From contig CAKOLL010000004.1 of the NCBI GenBank assembly GCA_934096295.1, positions 48,258 to 112,257 on the forward strand: a DNA stretch of 64,000 nucleotides, in the 5' to 3' direction. The DNA is from an uncultured Bacilli bacterium. GTDB taxonomy: Bacteria; Bacillota_I; Bacilli_A; RF39; UBA660. Positions 13,578-41,451 of this stretch are shown here, piece by piece; positions within the stretch are counted from its first letter, which is position 1, and the number at the start of each line of letters is the position of its first letter. Under the pieces are notes generated by a model. The model was not told the DNA's origin. It worked only from the letters and a program-made list of their open reading frames with translations, and did not search any database. The position numbers were made by a program, and so were the translations under genes.

Positions 13578-13606
13578 TTGACAAAAGCATTTTTATATTG
13601 TAATAT
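13578..13606 (+). promoter_or_regulatory. near-consensus sigma-A promoter
   Basis: TTGACA (13578-13583), 17-nt spacer, TAATAT (13601-13606). Confidence 0.6.
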
Positions 13607-13612
13607 TAATTT

Positions 13613-13722
13613 ACCGGAGAGTAATCTCGTCAGGTCGATAGTTAGATTTTGATTATTTATAATTAAGCGTGCTTTGTGTACGCCATGCTAACTGGGATTA
13701 AGCTACTCATGTAGCTTTTTTT
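13613..13722 (+). ncRNA. unclassified ~110-nt structured small RNA
   Basis: It lies between the promoter above and the hairpin AAGCTAC-TCAT-GTAGCTT plus T7 (13700-13722). No ORF or SD lies inside or downstream. Internal pairings are GAGTA/TACTC, ATCTC/GGGAT, AGTTAG/CTAACT and GCGT/ACGC. Confidence 0.45.
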
Positions 13723-13805
13723 CATTTAATTAAATCTGAAGAACGAAAAAACGGAAATTTTCGTTCTATAAACACTATTTTGTTAAAATTTATAAATAAG
13801 CATTG

Positions 13806-22997: not shown

Positions 22998-23072
22998 GCA
23001 GGTGTAGTACAGAGGTTAGTATGCGACCTTGCCAAGGTTGAGACGGCAGTTCGATTCTGCTCACTTGCTCCA
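22998..23072 (+). tRNA. tRNA-Gly (anticodon GCC), CCA encoded
   Basis: Hand-folded cloverleaf: acceptor GCAGGTG/CACTTGC, anticodon stem CGACC/GGTTG, loop TTGCCAA, T-arm GGCAG-TTCGATT-CTGCT, 3' TCCA. Confidence 0.9.
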
Positions 23073-25792: not shown

Positions 25793-26003
25793 AAAAAAAG
25801 AGCAAACATCCAAAAGGACGAATTGCTCGTGGTACCACCTTTATTTGTAATAATAGTTATTACCTCTTGTTGATAACGGATACTATCCGATTTAAAATCA
25901 TCATTTGTAATTCATTATTTTACTTTTACTTTTTTTCACCAATCACAAGCTCTCTAAAAAAAATTTAAAATAATTACTTCGAATGAATCGCTTTTTAATT
26001 AAC
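25793..26003 (-). promoter_or_regulatory. T-box riboswitch leader (probable Tyr specifier UAC)
   Basis: Read on the minus strand. Stem I starts AAGCGATTCATTCGAAGTAATTATTTTA, with AGAGAG...GGTGAAA. The specifier region is TAAAATAATGAATTACAAATGATGA. The T-box core is AAAGGTGGTACCACGAG (25826-25842). The terminator is GAGCAA...TTGCTC plus T7 (25793-25829). Confidence 0.8.
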
Positions 26004-32113: not shown

Positions 32114-32602
32114 TTATAATTCTACGATATTAACTTTATTTCCATGCTCTTTTATAATATTTATTAAATCTTCAACTCTCAAATAAATTGTGGCAGTATT
32201 TTCATTTGGATGAACACCGATTATTTTTTTATTTTCTAAAAATTCTTTATCTAAATAAAATGTGACCTTTAAATTCTTATCATTTAATAGACCCAATGAG
32301 GTTACGGAGCCTGGGATTAAATTTAGGATACTCATTAAATCTTCACTCGATGCAAAACTTAAACGTCTTGTATTATTATTGTTTGAAAATGTTTTTAAAT
32401 CCACTTTTTTGTTTCCTTTAACTGTAATAAGATAATAATTTCTTTTTTTGTCATCTCGCACAAATAAGTTTTTAGCATCGTATTCTGGATAAGGAACTTC
32501 TATTTCTGATATCTCATTCATGTTAAACACAGCTTTATGTTCTGTTACTTCATACCAAATATTTTTACTTTTTAAAAATTCATATATTTCTTGTTTATTC
32601 AT
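32114..32602 (-). CDS. YbaK/ProX-type aminoacyl-tRNA editing domain protein
   Basis: A 162-aa protein with KNLFVRDDKKRNYYLI...IPGSVTSLGLLND, typical of the prolyl-tRNA-synthetase-associated family. Confidence 0.7.
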   Translation of the reverse strand: MNKQEIYEFLKSKNIWYEVTEHKAVFNMNEISEIEVPYPEYDAKNLFVRDDKKRNYYLITVKGNKKVDLKTFSNNNNTRRLSFASSEDLMSILNLIPGSVTSLGLLNDKNLKVTFYLDKEFLENKKIIGVHPNENTATIYLRVEDLINIIKEHGNKVNIVEL

Positions 32603-33153
32603 TATTTTTTCTCCTTACACATAGCTAATATTTTTCTCATAGTGTTGGCAGTTCTTATTGTAATTCTATCTTTTATATTTGTACTTGCTGTTTTTATCCA
32701 CCAGTTTGATTTACGATAGCTTTTTAAATCAAATGACCAAAATATTGAATTTTTATAATTATTTATTTTATCAATACCATCACTTGGTAAACCTATTTCA
32801 TCATAAACATCTTTATATTTAGTCGGAGGCATTATAAATATTAAATTATCGTAAATTTCTTTGTTATCTGTTTTCCACCAATCCGGAGCATTATTTAATA
32901 TATCTTCTAACTCAGTTTCATTTAAAACAAAAACAGGTATATCTAAATTAAAATTATCTTTTATAATTTCAGAAATATTTTTAGCTATATTTTCTTTATT
33001 ATCTAAACTTGTTTTTAATATTACATTTCCACTATTAAGATGGGTTGTAACGTTTTGATAGTTATTTTCTTCTAGTACTTTTTTTAACTCTTTCATTACA
33101 ATTTTGTTTTTACCACTTATATTTACTCCCCAAAGCAAAGCAATATATTTCAT
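32602..33153 (-). CDS. DUF1697-family protein
   Basis: MKYIALLWGVNISGKNKIVMKELKKVLEE...HLNSGNV is the DUF1697 N-terminal signature. Confidence 0.7.
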   Translation of the reverse strand: MKYIALLWGVNISGKNKIVMKELKKVLEENNYQNVTTHLNSGNVILKTSLDNKENIAKNISEIIKDNFNLDIPVFVLNETELEDILNNAPDWWKTDNKEIYDNLIFIMPPTKYKDVYDEIGLPSDGIDKINNYKNSIFWSFDLKSYRKSNWWIKTASTNIKDRITIRTANTMRKILAMCKEKK

Positions 33154-33711: not shown

Positions 33712-34470
33712 TTATAAAATTTCTTCTTTTTTATTAATATTAGCATTGTAATAATCTGTTGGTAAGTTTCCTGATAATCTATTAATTTCAAAATCTATAA
33801 AGTAGTTACTTGGATTATTTTCATCAATTAATAAATCTACTAAGCCATCTTCATCAGAAAGTTTTTTATCATGTCTAGCATCCCCTTCTAAAGTAATTAC
33901 TGATCCAGATGGAAGCGTGTACTCTACTATAGGTTTAAATATTCTTACATTATTTACAACCATCCCAGTTTCTTCCATATGATATGGCAAATTTTTTACT
34001 AATTTGCCATTCATATTTAAATATTTAATTATTTTAAGCCTTTTATTTACTTTATGGATACTTAAACATCCGATTAAAATAAATATAATTGGTAAGAAAA
34101 CTCCGATTAATAGAAATTTATTGCTATTCTTAGAATATTCAGTCATACATTTTAAAGGTTCTTTTGAATCATAATAAACTTTTTTATTATCAGTTCCCGG
34201 ATAAATGCTTGATGAAGAATTTGATGAACATGAATATTCAATTCCGTTAACCTCATAATAGTAAATTGGAGAATACATAGTTGTACCATCGCTTATATGA
34301 GAGCTTATTTCCACTCTTGTTGAGGTTGTACTAGAATCCAAACTTTTAAGTTTTAAATAACTATTAATATATACACCTCCAAAGATTGACATAAAAACCA
34401 AACCAAATATTATAAAAATTAGGTAAAAGTTCCTACCTTTCTTTACATATTTTGTATTAATATCGTACAT
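33712..34470 (-). CDS. DUF3592-like membrane protein
   Basis: TM span, beta-rich segment (YSPIYYYEVNGIEYSCSS), second TM span, then a second similar segment. Confidence 0.5.
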   Translation of the reverse strand: MYDINTKYVKKGRNFYLIFIIFGLVFMSIFGGVYINSYLKLKSLDSSTTSTRVEISSHISDGTTMYSPIYYYEVNGIEYSCSSNSSSSIYPGTDNKKVYYDSKEPLKCMTEYSKNSNKFLLIGVFLPIIFILIGCLSIHKVNKRLKIIKYLNMNGKLVKNLPYHMEETGMVVNNVRIFKPIVEYTLPSGSVITLEGDARHDKKLSDEDGLVDLLIDENNPSNYFIDFEINRLSGNLPTDYYNANINKKEEIL

Positions 34471-34589: not shown

Positions 34590-35315
34590 ATGAATCAAGA
34601 AAAAATTGGAAAATTTATTTTAGAATGTCGAAAAAATAAAAAATTAACCCAAACTGAACTTGCAGAAAAATTAGGAGTTACAGATAAATCCATAAGTAAT
34701 TGGGAAAACGGTAGAAATATGCCAGACTTATCATTATTTAAACCTTTATGTGAAATATTAGGTATTTCTATTAATGATTTAATAAGTGGAGAAAAAATAT
34801 CTAAAGACAAATATCAAGAAAAATTGGAAGAAAATATTATTACTACAATTGATTATACTAACAAAAAAGTAATAGTTAAAAATAATATTATTGGAATAAT
34901 ACTAATTGCTTTCGGAGTAATAATGGCAATAACTGCGATGTCTATTTTTCCAAGTGAAAGTTCATGGGGAAGTATTTATTCAATATTTGGGACTTTAGTA
35001 TCTATGTTGGGAATTATTATTTTAATAAAGAAATTAAAACTTACTAAAAAGATTATAATTAGTGTAGGTTACCTTGTTTTATTTATTTCTATGTTATTTA
35101 TGATAGATTATATAAGTGTTATAAATATTAAACAAGCACCGAGATTTTCAATAATAAAAATATCAAGTGATACTGCAATATATTACGATACATTATTTTA
35201 TGATGTAATAAGATGCAATAAAAATAGTAAAGATGAATATTATAAGGTAATAAAAAATAATAATTATGATAAAGAAAATATTCGGAAATATTGCAAAAAG
35301 ATTAGTTCAAAATAA
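34590..35315 (+). CDS. XRE-family HTH regulator with C-terminal transmembrane segments
   Basis: KKLTQTELAEKLGVTDKSISNWENGRNMP, followed by 3 TM spans. I prefer the ATG at 34590 (GAAGGAA upstream). The last 6 codons lie inside the 38-nt repeat. Confidence 0.75.
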   Translation: MNQEKIGKFILECRKNKKLTQTELAEKLGVTDKSISNWENGRNMPDLSLFKPLCEILGISINDLISGEKISKDKYQEKLEENIITTIDYTNKKVIVKNNIIGIILIAFGVIMAITAMSIFPSESSWGSIYSIFGTLVSMLGIIILIKKLKLTKKIIISVGYLVLFISMLFMIDYISVINIKQAPRFSIIKISSDTAIYYDTLFYDVIRCNKNSKDEYYKVIKNNNYDKENIRKYCKKISSK

Positions 35316-35333
35316 CCGAACTAATCTTTTTTT
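35295..35333. repeat. copy 1 of a 38-nt terminator-hairpin direct repeat
   Basis: AAAAAGATTAGTTCAAAATAACCGAACTAATCTTTTTT, with stem GATTAGTTC/GAACTAATC. The identical core recurs at 41414-41451. Confidence 0.85.
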
Positions 35334-35762
35334 CTTACTAACTTCATTGGGTAAAATTTTATACCATATACATTGTTCTGTATCAGTATCTATAAAACCT
35401 AAATGTTTATAAATATCATGAGCAAATAAAGAAGAATTTACTGTCATATAATTTTCTTCATTTAAAGCATTTATTTTATCAAATAACATTCTACCTATTC
35501 CTTTATTATGGTTCTTGCCCTCTACAAAAAATAAAGCAATATGAGTTTTATCTTTGGTAGCAATAACTCCAGTTAAAGTATTGTCTATATAAGCTCCATA
35601 AAATTCTCTATCATTTATCCAATTCTTATTATCAATTGTTTTTTTAAATTCATTTATACCTTCTTCTGTATAATCTGGAGCTTCATACTCTAAAAATACA
35701 CTCCATACTAGCCCAAGAGCTTTATTCATATCTGAATTTGGTATTCTTTTAATATCTATCAT
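35307..35762 (-). CDS. GNAT-family N-acetyltransferase
   Basis: IALFFVEGKNHNKGIGRMLFDKI...HLGF is the acetyl-CoA-binding core. The last ~8 codons and the stop are supplied by the repeat. Confidence 0.75.
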   Translation of the reverse strand: MIDIKRIPNSDMNKALGLVWSVFLEYEAPDYTEEGINEFKKTIDNKNWINDREFYGAYIDNTLTGVIATKDKTHIALFFVEGKNHNKGIGRMLFDKINALNEENYMTVNSSLFAHDIYKHLGFIDTDTEQCIWYKILPNEVSKKKRLVRLF

Positions 35763-35788: not shown

Positions 35789-36799
35789 TTAATTTATATC
35801 TATTCTACTTCCATCGAATTTGAAACTTAATGGATAAATAATTGTTTTTTCTATTATTAAATCACTTTGTTTAATATCAATTATTCTTTCTATTGTGGGA
35901 CTAGCATTGACTGTGATAATTTTTGAATTAACTTCTCTCATAAATCTTGATGCACTATTTGCTGATTTTGTAAATATTGATGCACTATATTTACTTCCAT
36001 TATAATTAATTTGACCTATTGCTTCATCAATATCACTTACTAAAATAGCATCTTTATTATCTAGCTTTAAATCATTATTTATATATAATTGAATATTTAA
36101 ACCGGTGTCAACTATTCTTTTTAATAAATCAATATGAGAATCATCTTCAATATATAAATCGAAATTTTCATAACCACTTGTAATAGTTTTAATTTTGCTT
36201 TTATTTAATATTATATTTTGTAATTTACGATTACCTATACAAACTACAAGATTAATGTTAGCATAATTTGATAATATAGAATCAAATTCTTCAGTAACAT
36301 GTAGTTGAATTAAATATTTTGAAACTTCAAATTTTTCTAAAACATTTTTTATAATATTAATTATTAAATTATTTGTTCCATACATGTAACCTTTATTTGC
36401 AAATATTATAGTATTACCAGCTAATATATTTCTTAAAGCCATTTCAATTATAACATAGGGAATACCATCATTTATAACTAATACATTGCCATAATCCATT
36501 ATTTGTTTACCATAAATAATCTTCTTTTCTTCATCTTTTTCGGATAAAGTAACATTACCATAAATAATTGTTTCTTTTTCTAAATTTTTAAATATGTTAT
36601 TTAAAATATTAAAATCCATTATAAAACCATTATTATTTTTTTGATCTATTTTGTTAGTTTCTAAAATTAAATCTTTATTTATAAATAATGCTTTTTCTAC
36701 TTCTTTAATGATATTTTCTATATTATTATATAGATTTATCTTACCTACACTTAGAGCATTAGAAATTATTTTACTGGCATTATCTTCCACTGCCAACAC
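35789..36799 (-). CDS. divergent gamma-glutamyl-phosphate-reductase (ProA)/aldehyde-dehydrogenase-like protein, probably not catalytic
   Basis: DIDEAIGQINYNGSKYSASIFTKSANSASRFMREVNSKIITVNASP parallels the ProA pattern AI.HI..YGS.HS..I.T.....A..F...VDSA.V..NAS. I see no Cys where the ProA catalytic Cys is expected. The likely GTG start after AAAGAGGTG overlaps the end of the giant gene. Confidence 0.5.
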   Translation of the reverse strand: MLAVEDNASKIISNALSVGKINLYNNIENIIKEVEKALFINKDLILETNKIDQKNNNGFIMDFNILNNIFKNLEKETIIYGNVTLSEKDEEKKIIYGKQIMDYGNVLVINDGIPYVIIEMALRNILAGNTIIFANKGYMYGTNNLIINIIKNVLEKFEVSKYLIQLHVTEEFDSILSNYANINLVVCIGNRKLQNIILNKSKIKTITSGYENFDLYIEDDSHIDLLKRIVDTGLNIQLYINNDLKLDNKDAILVSDIDEAIGQINYNGSKYSASIFTKSANSASRFMREVNSKIITVNASPTIERIIDIKQSDLIIEKTIIYPLSFKFDGSRIDIN

Positions 36800-39700
36800 C
36801 TCTTTCTTTATCTATTTCATCGCTTAAGGAAACTGCTTTGTTATACATTTCTTGTTGAATATTATTTAATTTAGAAATATCAACTTCTTTACCATCAGAA
36901 ATTTGTTCTAATGCTAATCTAATTTGCATTGCCACTATATTTTCATCAATTAAAGTATTAAAATATAAATCTCCGATTGTTAATTTAGAATCATTTATGT
37001 CAAATATTATAGCAAAATTTGGAGATAAAATAATTCTTGTTGTTTTAGGGTTTAATTCACAATTATATGCTATTTCTGTAACTATGTGTTCTTCATCTTC
37101 AATTGATGTGTTTAAATTATATTTAGTTCCTTTTGTTATCGTTTCCAGTCTTTCCAAAGAATTCAACAATATTAAATTAAAATTAGTATCATCATAAAGA
37201 ATATAAGTATCATTATGAACTGGTAAGGTTTTACCATCAAATGATTTTCTATCTTCTCTTTTTTCCAGTACATATTGTGTGCTAGAATCACTTGTATACA
37301 AATGACGTTTTAAAGCAACCGGAGCCTCAAAATGTAAAGGTCTTGCTAAACGGTCTTTATCTAAATAAGCATTCTTTTTTATAGATTCAGCAATATCATT
37401 ATAACCTAATCCCACAGTTATTTTTCCAAGCCTTAATCCTTCATATTCTTCTTCAGTTATTTTTCCGCTTTCTAAAAGTTCTTTGTATACTTTTTCATCT
37501 TTTTTTATTAACTCATTGGCAGCTTCTTTATAAATTGCATAAATTTCATCAGTAAATTTTTCTCTACTTTTAGTACTTTTTTCTCTTGCAAATGCTTTAT
37601 CTGGAATTTCAATATTATCAAAACATAACACATCTTTATTTCTCCATACCCAACTTTGAGATACTATATTTCCTAGTTCATCTCGAATTACAAATACCCG
37701 TCCATTCTTATCAACCATGCTATGTTCCATGCACGACTCGGCAGTATCGTTTAGTTCTTGGCAACAATCTGTCAAAGTACCAATTGCCATGGCAAGTGGG
37801 TCATCCAATCTTAACATTTCATATGAATATTTTCCTTTAGTTGCTTCAATTCGAGGAATACTACTGAAAGTTCTTCTTTTGCCATAATCATATATTTTTT
37901 GTAAAGTATCAAAATCTGATTGAGAATAACCGGCAATAGCAGATATTTCTGCAACTTTATCATTACCTAATTCTATCCCGAGAAATTTATTAGATTGAAT
38001 GTAACTTACAGCTAATGATAATGTTAGATGACGATTACTATTTAAAACTTTTATTTCATTAAATTGTTTTTGAATACTCGCAATATATTTTATATATTCA
38101 GGATTTGTTAAAATTTCCGGCATATTTGCTAGTAAAAATTCTCTGAAATCTGGATCGTATATTAATTGAAATCCTCCGAAAAGTTTATGAGCTTTATCAG
38201 GATTTATAATAGGAATTTCATTGTGTTCTTCAAAAATATCCCTTAAGGCTTTGGCTACTTTTGGATATCTTTGGGGATTAAAATTCAAAGTATAAGAGCC
38301 ATCATCGTTTTTCCTATAAAGTTGAGTAAACATGTTTTGACTTTTGTCTATATCAAATTTTTCTTCATCTATGGCATCACTTATAGGTGTAATTGATAAT
38401 GGAAGAATTACTAATTCCATGAGAGCATTATCTTTTATGTCATTGAATAATTTTTCAATAGTTTTACCTTGTTCTAAAGCTAGCGTTCTAGGTATTCCTG
38501 TTAATAAATCAATAAGTTTTTTGAATCCTTTTTGATCGTTGTCAAAAGCTCCGAATGAATATGCAAGTTTTAACATAGCATCTCTTGCTTCTACTTTTTT
38601 AGAAAAATTTTCAATTTTCATTAAAGAACTCCAGTTTGATGCAGAAGTTAAAAATTTGTCAGCTTCTTCAAGGTCAAAATTTTGCATTACGACATAATCT
38701 GGAATAAATTTGCCTCCAGTTTTATCAAACCATTTTTTCATTAAATCTACTTTGTGTGATTTTAACATTTCATCAACTGTTTCAGGCTTATTTAAACCAA
38801 GTTTAACTGCGTTTTCACTTCCAAACATTTCAAAATATTTGAAAACATCTTTTTTTAATTCTTTGTTTCTTGCAAGAGCTACCAATAAATCTTTTCCTTC
38901 TAAATAAGGTAAAATTGTTTTATCCTGTTTTAGCAATGTAAAAGACATTGGATAAAAATTTTTATAATTATAAAAATATCTCTTTATATGTGCTGGAGTA
39001 CTTTCATCTAGAAAAAATTCTGGGTGATTTTCTTTTAAAAATAACGGAGCGTCTTCTTCAAAATACTCAAGTTCTCCATGTCTAATTTTATCTATGATAA
39101 TTTCGTCAATTGTTTTTATTAAGTCTTCAAACGATAAATCTTTGTCTAAATATTTTTCTAGAGAGTTTATCACTTTTCCCAAATATTTACCATATCCACT
39201 ACATAATTGTAAAAACTTTTCATTTCCTATTAATTTTAATAATTCTACTGCATGATATTTGTTTACGCTATAGGTTTTAAAATCAAAAACAAGCTCTATA
39301 TTTTTGTCTTTTAAAATTTCTTCCAATTGTGGATATTCTCTAATATCATCAAACGATAAATTATGTCTGTAGAATTTATCTGTTATTACTTTTTTATCTT
39401 CTTCAGATATATTTTCTAAATTACTAAGGTCAGTAAATATATCTGGATAAGCTGAAAGAAAATCTGGAACATTTTCTAAATATCGGTAGTCTTTAAATCC
39501 ACCTAAAATTTTAGCATAAATGGCTTTTCTAATTTGTTTTTCAATCAAAGTTTCATCTTCAATTTCTCCATGCATGCTTTCAATTGTAATAGAAGAGGTT
39601 AACGATGTTAAAATTCTTCCATACTTTGCTAATAGTTTTAAGAATTTTTTGTTTCCATATCTAAAAATATATTCTTTTTTAAAATCTATTTCATCAAATA

Positions 39701-41324
39701 CAACATAACCTTGTTCATCTTTCAAACTTGGAATTCTCAATTTCATTATACCATTTATTATGTTTAATAGATTTTTATTAACTAAATATGGAATATAATC
39801 TTTGTGATCAAATAATAGACTTGCACTAACATAATTTTTATAAAAAGCCTCTTTTAGTGATTCAGGAGCATTGCTATCAATGAATATTTCAGGATGTTTT
39901 TCACGAAATTCACCTTGAATCCAATCATAGCTTGGGAAGTTTCCAAAAAATTCTTTACTTCTCATAAAATCTAATAAATTAGCAAATTGATTTAAAAATT
40001 CTTCATAATCTAAAGTTCCTTTTTTAAAATCAATATTATTTTTGGTTAATAAGAAATAATGAGAATTGTAAAAATCAGCAAATTTGGTTAATGTGGTTAA
40101 ATCATCTTTGTATGCGCATAGGTGTGAGAAAAATCCCATCTCGTTTTCTAATTTTTTGATATTTTCTAACCCTAAAGCTTCAACAAAAATCTTTTGACCT
40201 TTTTCCAGTGGAAATAATGATGGATCATATAGCATTAATTGCTCTTTACTTTTTAATTTGTTGCATACTGAAAAGAAAACTGCAAGATAGCATAACATTT
40301 CGTACTCTTCATCAATATTGTTTGAATTTTTTTCACTATTTGCATCATTATAAGCCGTAATAATTTTACAAAATTTTGTACCTTGGTCTGTTTTAATAAT
40401 ATAATTGAAATGTTTGGGAAAATTTTTTATATAATTTAGTAATGGAAAATCCCCAAAAAAGTTTGATAAAAATCTAACACTTTCTTTGTATGGAACAGAT
40501 GAAGAAATAAAATTAGACCATTCTATTTTTTTAAATAAGGAAATGTTATTAATTATATCGTCAATAGTTAACTTTCTATTATAATAACGCTTTCTTAAAT
40601 CTTCTGGAATATCTGCCCCGATTAATAAAATTTCTTTATTTTCCTCAACAAATGTTTCTGGTAATTTGCTTATATCTATTGGTCCAAAATTTCTATTAAA
40701 AATCATTTTTCTAAATATTCTATTATCTTTTTGTTGTGAAAATTCATAATACATTTCTATAACTTTAGGCAGACCAAGTTCTTCAACCATTTTTCTAGAC
40801 TTACTTTCTAAATTGTAAAAAATATATTTACTACTTAATTCTTCTATTTGTTCAAAATCTAAAGAAAACACTTCTTTCAAAGTTAGTTTACATTCATATA
40901 TGGTTTGTTTAAATTGTTCACTAAATAAGTCTGATAGAAAATTATTTGGATTACTTTTAACAATTTCATCATCAAAATGATTCGGATTAACAATTCTATT
41001 CAACTTATCAAAATTTCTAATATTACATCCTTTATAATTAATATATGGTGAATAACTTACGATATCAAAATCTATATTTGCCTTGGTTTTTGTAAGATCT
41101 GCAATAAAACCTTTGTCTGCTATAATTCTAAGATCTTTCCATTCATCAAATGGAATATCACTTAAGTCACAACTTAATAATTTATTTTGAAGATTATAAT
41201 ATTGATTAGCTAACTCTTCTTTAATTGTTATAGACAATTGGTAAGAATTCTTTATTTTGTTTATTATGGAATTTAACAGTGATTTAATTTGTCTAAATTC
41301 TACGACTGTTAACTTATCATTCAT
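36780..41324 (-). CDS. 1514-aa cytoplasmic protein of unknown function with a recurring ~35-aa motif
   Basis: Uninterrupted ORF with GGTGGTGAG before the ATG. No signal peptide or TM span. It has at least five copies of a [NH]P-[ED]-[IF]-F...P..[LI][KR]..[FY]Y motif and a Cys/His patch, TDCCQELNDTAESCMEHS. Confidence 0.8.
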   Translation of the reverse strand: MNDKLTVVEFRQIKSLLNSIINKIKNSYQLSITIKEELANQYYNLQNKLLSCDLSDIPFDEWKDLRIIADKGFIADLTKTKANIDFDIVSYSPYINYKGCNIRNFDKLNRIVNPNHFDDEIVKSNPNNFLSDLFSEQFKQTIYECKLTLKEVFSLDFEQIEELSSKYIFYNLESKSRKMVEELGLPKVIEMYYEFSQQKDNRIFRKMIFNRNFGPIDISKLPETFVEENKEILLIGADIPEDLRKRYYNRKLTIDDIINNISLFKKIEWSNFISSSVPYKESVRFLSNFFGDFPLLNYIKNFPKHFNYIIKTDQGTKFCKIITAYNDANSEKNSNNIDEEYEMLCYLAVFFSVCNKLKSKEQLMLYDPSLFPLEKGQKIFVEALGLENIKKLENEMGFFSHLCAYKDDLTTLTKFADFYNSHYFLLTKNNIDFKKGTLDYEEFLNQFANLLDFMRSKEFFGNFPSYDWIQGEFREKHPEIFIDSNAPESLKEAFYKNYVSASLLFDHKDYIPYLVNKNLLNIINGIMKLRIPSLKDEQGYVVFDEIDFKKEYIFRYGNKKFLKLLAKYGRILTSLTSSITIESMHGEIEDETLIEKQIRKAIYAKILGGFKDYRYLENVPDFLSAYPDIFTDLSNLENISEEDKKVITDKFYRHNLSFDDIREYPQLEEILKDKNIELVFDFKTYSVNKYHAVELLKLIGNEKFLQLCSGYGKYLGKVINSLEKYLDKDLSFEDLIKTIDEIIIDKIRHGELEYFEEDAPLFLKENHPEFFLDESTPAHIKRYFYNYKNFYPMSFTLLKQDKTILPYLEGKDLLVALARNKELKKDVFKYFEMFGSENAVKLGLNKPETVDEMLKSHKVDLMKKWFDKTGGKFIPDYVVMQNFDLEEADKFLTSASNWSSLMKIENFSKKVEARDAMLKLAYSFGAFDNDQKGFKKLIDLLTGIPRTLALEQGKTIEKLFNDIKDNALMELVILPLSITPISDAIDEEKFDIDKSQNMFTQLYRKNDDGSYTLNFNPQRYPKVAKALRDIFEEHNEIPIINPDKAHKLFGGFQLIYDPDFREFLLANMPEILTNPEYIKYIASIQKQFNEIKVLNSNRHLTLSLAVSYIQSNKFLGIELGNDKVAEISAIAGYSQSDFDTLQKIYDYGKRRTFSSIPRIEATKGKYSYEMLRLDDPLAMAIGTLTDCCQELNDTAESCMEHSMVDKNGRVFVIRDELGNIVSQSWVWRNKDVLCFDNIEIPDKAFAREKSTKSREKFTDEIYAIYKEAANELIKKDEKVYKELLESGKITEEEYEGLRLGKITVGLGYNDIAESIKKNAYLDKDRLARPLHFEAPVALKRHLYTSDSSTQYVLEKREDRKSFDGKTLPVHNDTYILYDDTNFNLILLNSLERLETITKGTKYNLNTSIEDEEHIVTEIAYNCELNPKTTRIILSPNFAIIFDINDSKLTIGDLYFNTLIDENIVAMQIRLALEQISDGKEVDISKLNNIQQEMYNKAVSLSDEIDKERGVGSGR

Positions 41325-41399: not shown

Positions 41400-41408
41400 A
41401 TTATAACA
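41400..41408 (-). promoter_or_regulatory. extended -10 promoter element at the inner edge of repeat copy 2
   Basis: The minus strand reads TGTTATAAT (TGnTATAAT), about 75 nt upstream of the giant-gene ATG. Confidence 0.4.
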
Positions 41409-41413
41409 AGTAA

Positions 41414-41451
41414 AAAAAGATTAGTTCAAAATAACCGAACTAATCTTTTTT
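41414..41451. repeat. copy 2 of the 38-nt terminator-hairpin direct repeat
   Basis: The core is identical to 35295-35333. It lies 13 nt downstream of the stop of the 41465..42379 gene. Confidence 0.85.

Follow-up and report, generated by a model that had tools for sequence, protein, structure and literature searches.

What does a bacterium gain from a gene of 1514 codons whose product is recognised by no family model? The question is raised by a stretch of 64,000 nucleotides from an uncultured Bacilli bacterium of the GTDB lineage RF39/UBA660 (assembly GCA_934096295.1, contig CAKOLL010000004.1, positions 48,258 to 112,257), hereafter the window, in which such a gene occupies 36783..41324 on the reverse strand as an intact open reading frame (ORF) with its stop codon at 36780–36782. 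The large gene is directly followed by a smaller one on the same strand (35789..36799) that encodes a degenerate relative of ProA (gamma-glutamyl phosphate reductase). Our answer, which we hold tentatively and at somewhat less than an even chance, is that the pair encodes a two-subunit GNAT-fold transferase, carried as an accessory and sometimes mobile cargo, the chemistry, target and role of which are what we infer here.

The large protein appears to be cytoplasmic and modular. It has an N-terminus unlike a signal peptide and lacks a Walker A motif; a convincing transmembrane segment was likewise not found, the highest mean hydropathy over 19 residues on the Kyte-Doolittle scale being 1.6 at amino acids 967–985, within a variable loop of low model confidence. 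In these respects a first, sequence-only reading of the locus, which had described a cytoplasmic protein lacking a P-loop, agrees with the present analysis. The same reading had found no family to which the protein could be assigned, and this also stands: searches of Pfam, NCBIfam, PADLOC, PHROGs and PDB sequences with the whole protein returned only sub-threshold noise (OST-HTH, SHOCT, DUF5580_C), profile searches of the PDB with the C-terminal domain and with the full alignment gave no match, and a word-index search with a profile of just the domain recovered unnamed fragments only.

The conserved C-terminal module of ~650 amino acids opens with a helical middle domain (amino acids ~881–1150, ~270 amino acids; 37875..38684), which ends in an SSIPRI motif and is kept in distant relatives without repeats. 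It is followed by two putative GNAT-like domains, the first at amino acids ~1151–1349 (37278..37874) and the second, less conserved, at ~1350–1514 (36783..37277), which was delimited from predicted secondary structure and from tandem-GNAT matches extending over 360–400 columns. In the AlphaFold2 (AF2) model of amino acids 850–1514, which was built from 50 sequences and has a mean predicted local distance difference test (pLDDT) score of 84.8, the helical domain comes first and is succeeded from amino acid ~1160 by the order β1-α1-α2-β2-β3-β4-α3-β5-α4-β6, predicted twice in succession. When this model was compared with the PDB by Foldseek, the top 50 matches were all GNAT or tandem-GNAT proteins, including VipF, the clavulanate tandem GNAT, Gcn5 (probability 1.00), RibT (TMt 0.64), SpeG, NatD, FemX and Eis, several of the matches having probabilities of 0.9–1.0. 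The corresponding comparison with BFVD again returned GNAT and Fem proteins, together with an uncharacterised phage protein of 656 amino acids (E 1.8e-10). Departures from the canonical fold are predicted as well: a long helix (amino acids ~1254–1285, the extended α3) and a SHOCT-like helix would be inserted after β4, and in the first domain a conserved G-x-G (G1305-x-G1307) is found after β5 instead of an acyl-coenzyme A (acyl-CoA) loop. The modelled region from amino acid ~1150 to 1514 is thus best described as a tandem GNAT-like pseudo-dimer by fold, which would lie outside the acyl-CoA N-acyltransferase family as motif A defines it.

Within the first of these domains lies a patch of Cys and His residues that the sequence-only reading had thought might be metal-binding or catalytic, and whose conservation was counted in 213 domain copies. 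C1188, D1236 and E1239 are present in all 213, C1234, W1225 and W1227 in 212 each, and H1201 in 211, followed by R1151 (209), C1187 (207) and Q1189 (205); G1305-x-G1307 and D1346 are invariant wherever the sequence is present. The core of the domain, amino acids ~1167–1229, is the best-conserved part of the family. C1198, by contrast, is found in only 156 of the 213 copies and is Ser in 42. Conservation of the patch is therefore borne out for C1188, H1201 and C1234, though not for C1198, and because the latter varies the alignment argues against a four-Cys site and for a near-invariant set made up of C1188, H1201, C1234, D1236 and E1239 together with two Trp residues. In the AF2 model C1187 and C1188 would be placed in the α1-α2 loop (the motif continuing with Q1189) and H1201 in α2, while W1225 and W1227 are predicted on β3 and C1234, D1236 and E1239 on β4. 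The region that bears these residues is one that we take, from the general architecture of the fold, to be the acceptor side of a GNAT active site.

The second component of the pair is the partner gene, the product of which (333–336 amino acids, depending on whether translation starts at the GTG at 36790 or at 36799) resembles ProA and other ALDH-like proteins. A profile of three partner orthologues matched the ProA structures 8zok (E 9.5e-12) and 1vlu (E 2.9e-10) and P5CS (E 3.8e-8) in the PDB. ProA residues ~246–318, however, have no counterpart in the partner, in which 17 amino acids substitute for them; the catalytic cysteine of ProA, Cys255 in the T. maritima enzyme, falls within the replaced segment. 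In an alignment of 39 partner sequences no Cys is conserved, although many other positions are invariant. Since the segment with the catalytic Cys is lost and no other conserved Cys is present, the partner is to all appearances a ProA-fold protein that is unable to perform ProA chemistry. Its start lies 11–20 nucleotides inside the large gene, the GTG at 36790, with AGAGG ahead of it, giving the overlap of 11 nucleotides, and an overlap of start and stop was seen in the window as well as at two further loci (L001 and L003), so that the two genes are likely to be translationally coupled. Of 54 non-redundant loci with the large gene, 46 have the partner directly downstream of it (48 if two loci with another arrangement are counted), even where identity has fallen to 37%, and most of the others are cut off by a contig edge or contain a broken gene. 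In one locus (L048) the partner ORF is longer, with 439 amino acids. In several metagenome-assembled genomes (MAGs) the large gene (L009, L026, L035, L047 and L055) or the partner (L027 and L047) is split into two ORFs, which are either pseudogenes or assembly frameshifts.

The N-terminal half of the large protein begins with a cap (amino acids 1–90; 41055..41324) that is modelled as two long helices followed by a short β-rich stretch with pentapeptide-like wording (DLSDIPF..ANIDF..CNIRN); it is kept in the consensus of the homologue alignment and has no Pfam match. Downstream of the cap, the sequence-only reading had noticed at least five spaced copies of one motif. To assess them, the homologue alignment was divided into eight segments that were compared profile against profile with hhalign. 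The five motif-bearing segments matched each other with probabilities of 93–99.7%, except for units 1 and 3 (68%), while the three non-repeat segments matched nothing (<5%). All five motif copies were located, namely NPNNF...FKQTIY at amino acid 125 in unit 1 (~91–200; 40725..41054), NKEIL...LRKRYY at 229 in unit 2 (~201–330; 40335..40724), HPEIF..APESLKEAFY at 477 in unit 3 (~441–590; 39555..40004), YPDIF...ITDKFY at 626 in unit 4 (~591–735; 39120..39554) and HPEFF..TPAHIKRYFY at 767 in unit 5 (~736–880; 38685..39119). Units 2 and 3 are separated by a helical insert (~331–440; 40005..40334) that shows an hhalign probability below 5% to every repeat unit. A hidden Markov model (HMM) of the repeat core likewise finds exactly five copies, at amino acids 111–204, 216–314, 463–554, 612–720 and 754–849, whereas a self-BLAST of the single sequence does not reveal the repeats, for which profiles are required. 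Judged from these profiles, the repeats are genuine homologous units of ~100–145 amino acids each, and they are modelled as α-helical. The AF2 model of amino acids 1–880 is confident (pLDDT 88.6) and nearly all helical. This predicted array has no solved analogue among PDB structures searched with Foldseek, where the best match, to serum albumin (E 0.7), is meaningless, and it has no Pfam match either.

How widely the large protein is distributed was addressed at several depths. A word-index search returned 79 unnamed full-length relatives; an exhaustive HMMER scan with amino acids 850–1514 recovered, at E≤1e-3, 1573 clusters (50% identity), of which 224 reach E≤1e-30; and 53 loci came from a scan of GTDB species genomes, nearly all in MAGs from the gut that bear the labels Bacilli, Tenericutes, Mycoplasmatota or 'Clostridium sp. 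CAG', with a few in Clostridia. We take these gut hosts to be RF39-like. Three loci (L022, L041 and L042) come from MAGs labelled Muribaculaceae, Ignavibacteriales or Methanobrevibacter, and because their proteins are 52–62% identical to Bacilli proteins the labels are probably binning errors and do not reflect a real host range. The homologues fall into two classes: class 1 proteins are alike over the whole length, and class 2 proteins, which are paralogous, resemble them over amino acids 1–790 only, with at most 37% identity, and continue with ~850 amino acids that are unrelated to the class 1 C-terminus (hhalign probability 0.1%). This other C-terminus carries a motif of its own (GHYGIRTGFASSEINYIV...GLEIAxNGFYIPV; proteins P0061–P0079, e.g. 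L005 8001–12599 and L006 8001–12998), for which Pfam, PADLOC and the PDB offered nothing usable, the best matches being a weak HEPN_RiboL-PSP (E 0.0026) and a weak cyclase (E 0.0077). Class 2 genes have no ProA-like partner and sit among housekeeping genes (infC-rpmI-rplT, rpsB-tsf, lepA, greA and topA, or uvrC, mutL and miaA). The C-terminal module, in turn, is also found without any repeats in proteins of 640–780 amino acids, and behind DUF4116 repeats in two of 26 distant relatives. As each occurs without the other, the repeat array and the C-terminal module are separable units that have been recombined. They also differ in conservation, since among the same orthologues the C-terminal module retains ~58–66% identity and the repeats 39–48%, and the number of repeat copies, counted with the repeat-core HMM, ranges from 1 to 7 among 199 relatives.

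The surroundings of the pair are far less constant than the pair itself. Among 135 ORFs located within three genes of it in more than 40 genomes, the only recurrent ones are large serine recombinases (5) and ABC-transporter genes (5), while the others are mostly housekeeping genes (RecA, RuvB, PheRS, Hsp90, FtsW and similar) and the PADLOC matches are mostly generic (ABC, cysteine desulfurase, methyltransferase); comparison of the homologues' neighbourhoods thus leaves the large gene and its partner as the sole conserved neighbourhood. In three loci (L018, L019 and L053) an insertion of 7.9 kb in which the pair is accompanied by nothing but a large serine recombinase (e.g. L018 5342–13222) is found inside an ABC ATPase gene, and in two others (L001 and L002) the same site holds a version of 10.5 kb (L001 3998–14470). 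The insertion point lies exactly after the ABC signature motif (LSGGMKQRVA / LIRTLA), and the ATPase gene is thereby inactivated. Short inverted 9-mers are seen at the element junctions (TTGAATGTA / TACATTCAA), and in one locus (L030) an intact ABC gene lies directly beside the pair, without a recombinase. Altogether, 11 of 54 loci have a large serine recombinase somewhere in the ±10 kb region, and in about nine loci it is no farther than three called ORFs from the pair, a frequency far above what would be expected for a gene with one or two copies per genome. At three loci (L058, L020 and L051) the pair or the large gene is duplicated in tandem on one contig. Neither PLSDB, in which no plasmid homologue was found, nor IMG/VR, in which two pattern-limited scans (protein patterns, and a WRN-x4-CFDNIE DNA pattern) found no viral contig with a relative, adds a further carrier. 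From these distributions we infer that gut RF39-like Bacilli and some Clostridia carry the pair as an accessory trait, which is occasionally mobile.

For the window itself, the insertion-like block that the sequence-only reading had suggested is not borne out: no recombinase is encoded within the 64 kb, and the G+C content is ~25% throughout, that of the large gene resembling its flanks. In relatives with 88% and 77% identity the pair is found at the same site, flanked by a flavodoxin-like or NUDIX block on one side and by a gene with a helix-turn-helix (HTH) domain on the other, and these relatives differ beside the pair by a Fic gene, a PrsW-like gene or a GNAT gene. In the closest of them (88% identity; L062 4986–5954 and L063 1966–2934) a gene with Fic and HTH domains, absent from the window, is located between the flavodoxin-like gene and the large gene. 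The pair in the window accordingly looks like a resident of a variable region, with no demonstrable fresh insertion.

In the proposed transferase, the large protein and the partner would form a stoichiometric complex through translational coupling, and the first GNAT-like domain would be the catalytic one. The tandem-GNAT module may transfer an acyl or an aminoacyl group to a macromolecule that would be held or selected by the repeat scaffold. C1188 or C1234 could carry this group as a thioester, with H1201, D1236 and E1239 acting as acid or base. The ProA-like partner could be the subunit that binds a ligand, be it a nucleotide or an activated carboxylate, or it could have a regulatory part in the complex. 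Several observations weigh against this proposal. The Foldseek matches to GNAT proteins have weak E-values (0.01–0.3) and the TM-scores (template modelling scores) to single GNAT domains reach only 0.4–0.64; no GNAT profile HMM matches the protein at E≤1, and Acetyltransf_1 (PF00583) is matched by one of 19 domain copies (E 0.096). The acyl-CoA loop (motif A, Q/RxxGxG/A) is absent after β4 in both halves; in the first, the sequence at this point (CFDNIEIPDKAFAREK...) varies and no Gly is conserved among 19–26 diverse members. Furthermore, a cyanophage homologue has Tyr at the position of H1201, the Cys/His/Asp cluster could be a structural Zn site, and complex formation is read only from the gene overlap and the co-occurrence of the two genes.

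Two of these sequence features, the cluster and the missing loop, would fit a different explanation, in which a structural zinc site of the Cys2-His-Asp type stabilises a non-catalytic GNAT-like fold and the whole protein is a lineage-specific scaffold that has no enzymatic role. C1188, H1201, C1234 and D1236 are classic types of ligand and are situated on elements that pack together in the GNAT fold (the α1-α2 region and the face of β4), and the relatives that combine the same repeats with another C-terminus sit among housekeeping genes. Yet E1239, R1151, W1225, W1227, Q1189 and the G-x-G after β5 are equally invariant, which goes beyond the needs of a Zn site, the phage homologue that swaps His for Tyr retains CCQ, SWxW and CFDNxE, and a conserved, translationally coupled partner with an enzyme fold suggests chemistry; we regard a purely structural role as unlikely. 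The absence of motif A would also fit a transferase that depends on aminoacyl-tRNA, like the Fem or L/F-transferase enzymes, since these are GNAT folds that naturally have no CoA loop, and such an enzyme would employ the long α3 hairpin, at the helix inserted after β4 (amino acids ~1254–1285), as a tRNA-binding arm. The tandem architecture and the presence of FemX structures and of a phage 'FemAB family protein' among the Foldseek matches agree with it. However, the FemX matches are no better than those to acetyltransferases (probability 0.3–0.47, root-mean-square deviation ~19–21 Å), no FemAB, Leu_Phe_trans or ATE Pfam model matches at E≤1, and Fem and L/F enzymes use neither Cys nor His, which makes this assignment quite improbable.

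A role in conflict, which the sequence-only reading had proposed, was weighed in the form of anti-phage defence or abortive infection, where the variable repeats would sense a component of the invader, the GNAT-like module would modify a host or phage target, and the partner would be a regulator or an antitoxin-like inhibitor. Such a system would fit the shuffling of repeats and C-terminal modules and the changing repeat number, the tandem duplications, the proximity of large serine recombinases and the pair being the sole cargo of their elements, the Fic-domain and HTH genes beside the pair in close relatives, and the distant homologue in Microcystis phages. On the other hand, PADLOC (PADLOC-DB 2.0) has no match for the large protein, the partner, the flanking genes or the class 2 proteins; the mostly housekeeping neighbours bear no defence-island signature and their PADLOC matches are largely generic; and the pattern-limited IMG/VR scans returned no viral contig. 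The strong conservation of the catalytic module and the shared chromosomal site in relatives with 77–88% identity, which looks like stable inheritance, likewise speak against it, so that the proposal as first made goes unsupported and defence in this specific form is unlikely, even if a conflict role for the pair is possible. The remaining candidate, a 'polyvalent protein' of the PcfJ-like kind found in conjugative elements or phages, was suggested by three 'PcfJ-like protein' matches in the BFVD Foldseek search (E 8e-3 to 0.44, probability 0.18–0.51) and by a superficial motif resemblance (C..H..G....hhh), and is very improbable in view of the absence of plasmid homologues in PLSDB and of conjugation genes nearby. 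On sequence grounds this candidate was in effect rejected, as the hhalign comparison of the domain profile with pCF10 PcfJ gave a probability of 0.1% and PF14284 was not matched.

At the locus itself, the large gene is preceded by a strong ribosome-binding site (AGGTGGTGA) 7 nucleotides ahead of the ATG at 41324. Further upstream on the same strand (41400..41451), a terminator-like hairpin of the preceding gene (41451–41413) overlaps a promoter-like site with an extended -10 element (41429–41400), both recognised as consensus matches only. Past the partner stop by 26 nucleotides, and with its own ribosome-binding site, lies a canonical GNAT acetyltransferase gene (Acetyltransf_10, E 1e-23; 35307–35762, reverse strand), which in this genome probably shares a transcript with the pair and is not kept beside it elsewhere. 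The nearby genes for a DUF3592-like protein (a sub-threshold match; 33712–34470), a DUF1697 protein (32602–33153) and a YbaK-type aminoacyl-tRNA editing domain (32114–32602), all on the reverse strand, have no evident link to the pair. Elsewhere in the window, Rfam models match a DUF3800-I RNA (13606–13730, forward strand, 53.9 bits), a T-box leader (25811–26000, reverse strand, 98.6 bits) and tRNA-Gly(GCC) (22998–23072, forward strand).

RF39-like Bacilli are common, uncultured members of the gut community in humans and animals and have small genomes, and the ~5.5 kb devoted to the pair in such a genome, the main contig of which is shorter than 1 Mb, suggests that its role is important. While the folds of the C-terminal module and of the partner are of known kinds, literature searches on DUF4116, on ProA together with anti-phage and GNAT, and on RF39 together with serine recombinase brought up nothing of relevance, and no description was found anywhere searched of the family, its active-site cluster, the fold of the repeats, the obligatory pseudo-ProA pairing or the minimal recombinase element. 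The GNAT-like domain bears an active-site-like cluster that is unseen in known GNATs, the pseudo-ProA partner clearly exemplifies an enzyme fold that has been put to a new use, and the minimal recombinase element at the ABC signature motif shows that the pair has been selected as cargo. A bolder extension, which we consider rather doubtful, is that the pair represents a new two-component system, in which a scaffold-tethered GNAT-fold enzyme with a cysteine-based active site, possibly sharing a composite site or a substrate hand-over with the pseudo-ProA, would carry out an undescribed modification, would spread as the sole cargo of minimal serine-recombinase elements at the ABC signature motif and would serve a new function in defence or element maintenance in gut RF39-like Bacilli. 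Assigning a function to the pair would annotate thousands of genes in gut metagenomes and might reveal a new protein-modification chemistry.

Among known systems, the two-subunit transferase that we tentatively favour comes closest in fold to the tandem-GNAT proteins (VipF, 7wx5; the clavulanate protein, 2wpw; Eis; FemX), which consist of two consecutive GNAT-like α/β domains with one half much better conserved, as is predicted for amino acids ~1150–1514. It differs from them in having no sequence-level match to any GNAT model and no Q/RxxGxG/A loop, in the invariant Cys/His/Cys/Asp/Glu cluster that those enzymes lack, and in the added long helical insertion with its SHOCT-like helix and the fusion to ~1150 amino acids of helical domains. 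With ProA (8zok, 1vlu and 1o20; ALDH superfamily) the partner shares the cofactor-binding part and a C-terminal 'NAS(T/P)' segment, and one source annotates a member of the partner family as ProA, whereas the partner is ~80 amino acids shorter, has the catalytic-Cys segment replaced and no Cys conserved, and never adjoins proB but always lies downstream of the large gene. DUF4116 repeat proteins (PF13475) resemble the large protein in carrying a helical repeat array at the N-terminus of the same C-terminal-module family, but the large protein has no PF13475 match and its units span 100–145 amino acids compared to ~50 in DUF4116. The hypothetical protein ORF68L of the Microcystis phage MaMV-DC (697 amino acids; L060 2573–4666) has at its C-terminus the Cys/His-bearing domain of the large protein (hhalign probability 98.6%, 24% identity), in which CCQ, SWxW and CFDNxE are kept and Tyr takes the place of H1201, and it has no repeats, no annotated ProA-like neighbour and no Pfam match. 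Finally, small elements mobilised by large serine recombinases include kinds such as Tn4451/TnpX and SCCmec/Ccr, and the elements found here are like large-serine-recombinase integrative elements in combining one recombinase with a short cargo and in their site-specific insertion within a conserved gene; they differ in that the cargo is this gene pair and no resistance gene, and the copy in the window stands without a recombinase.

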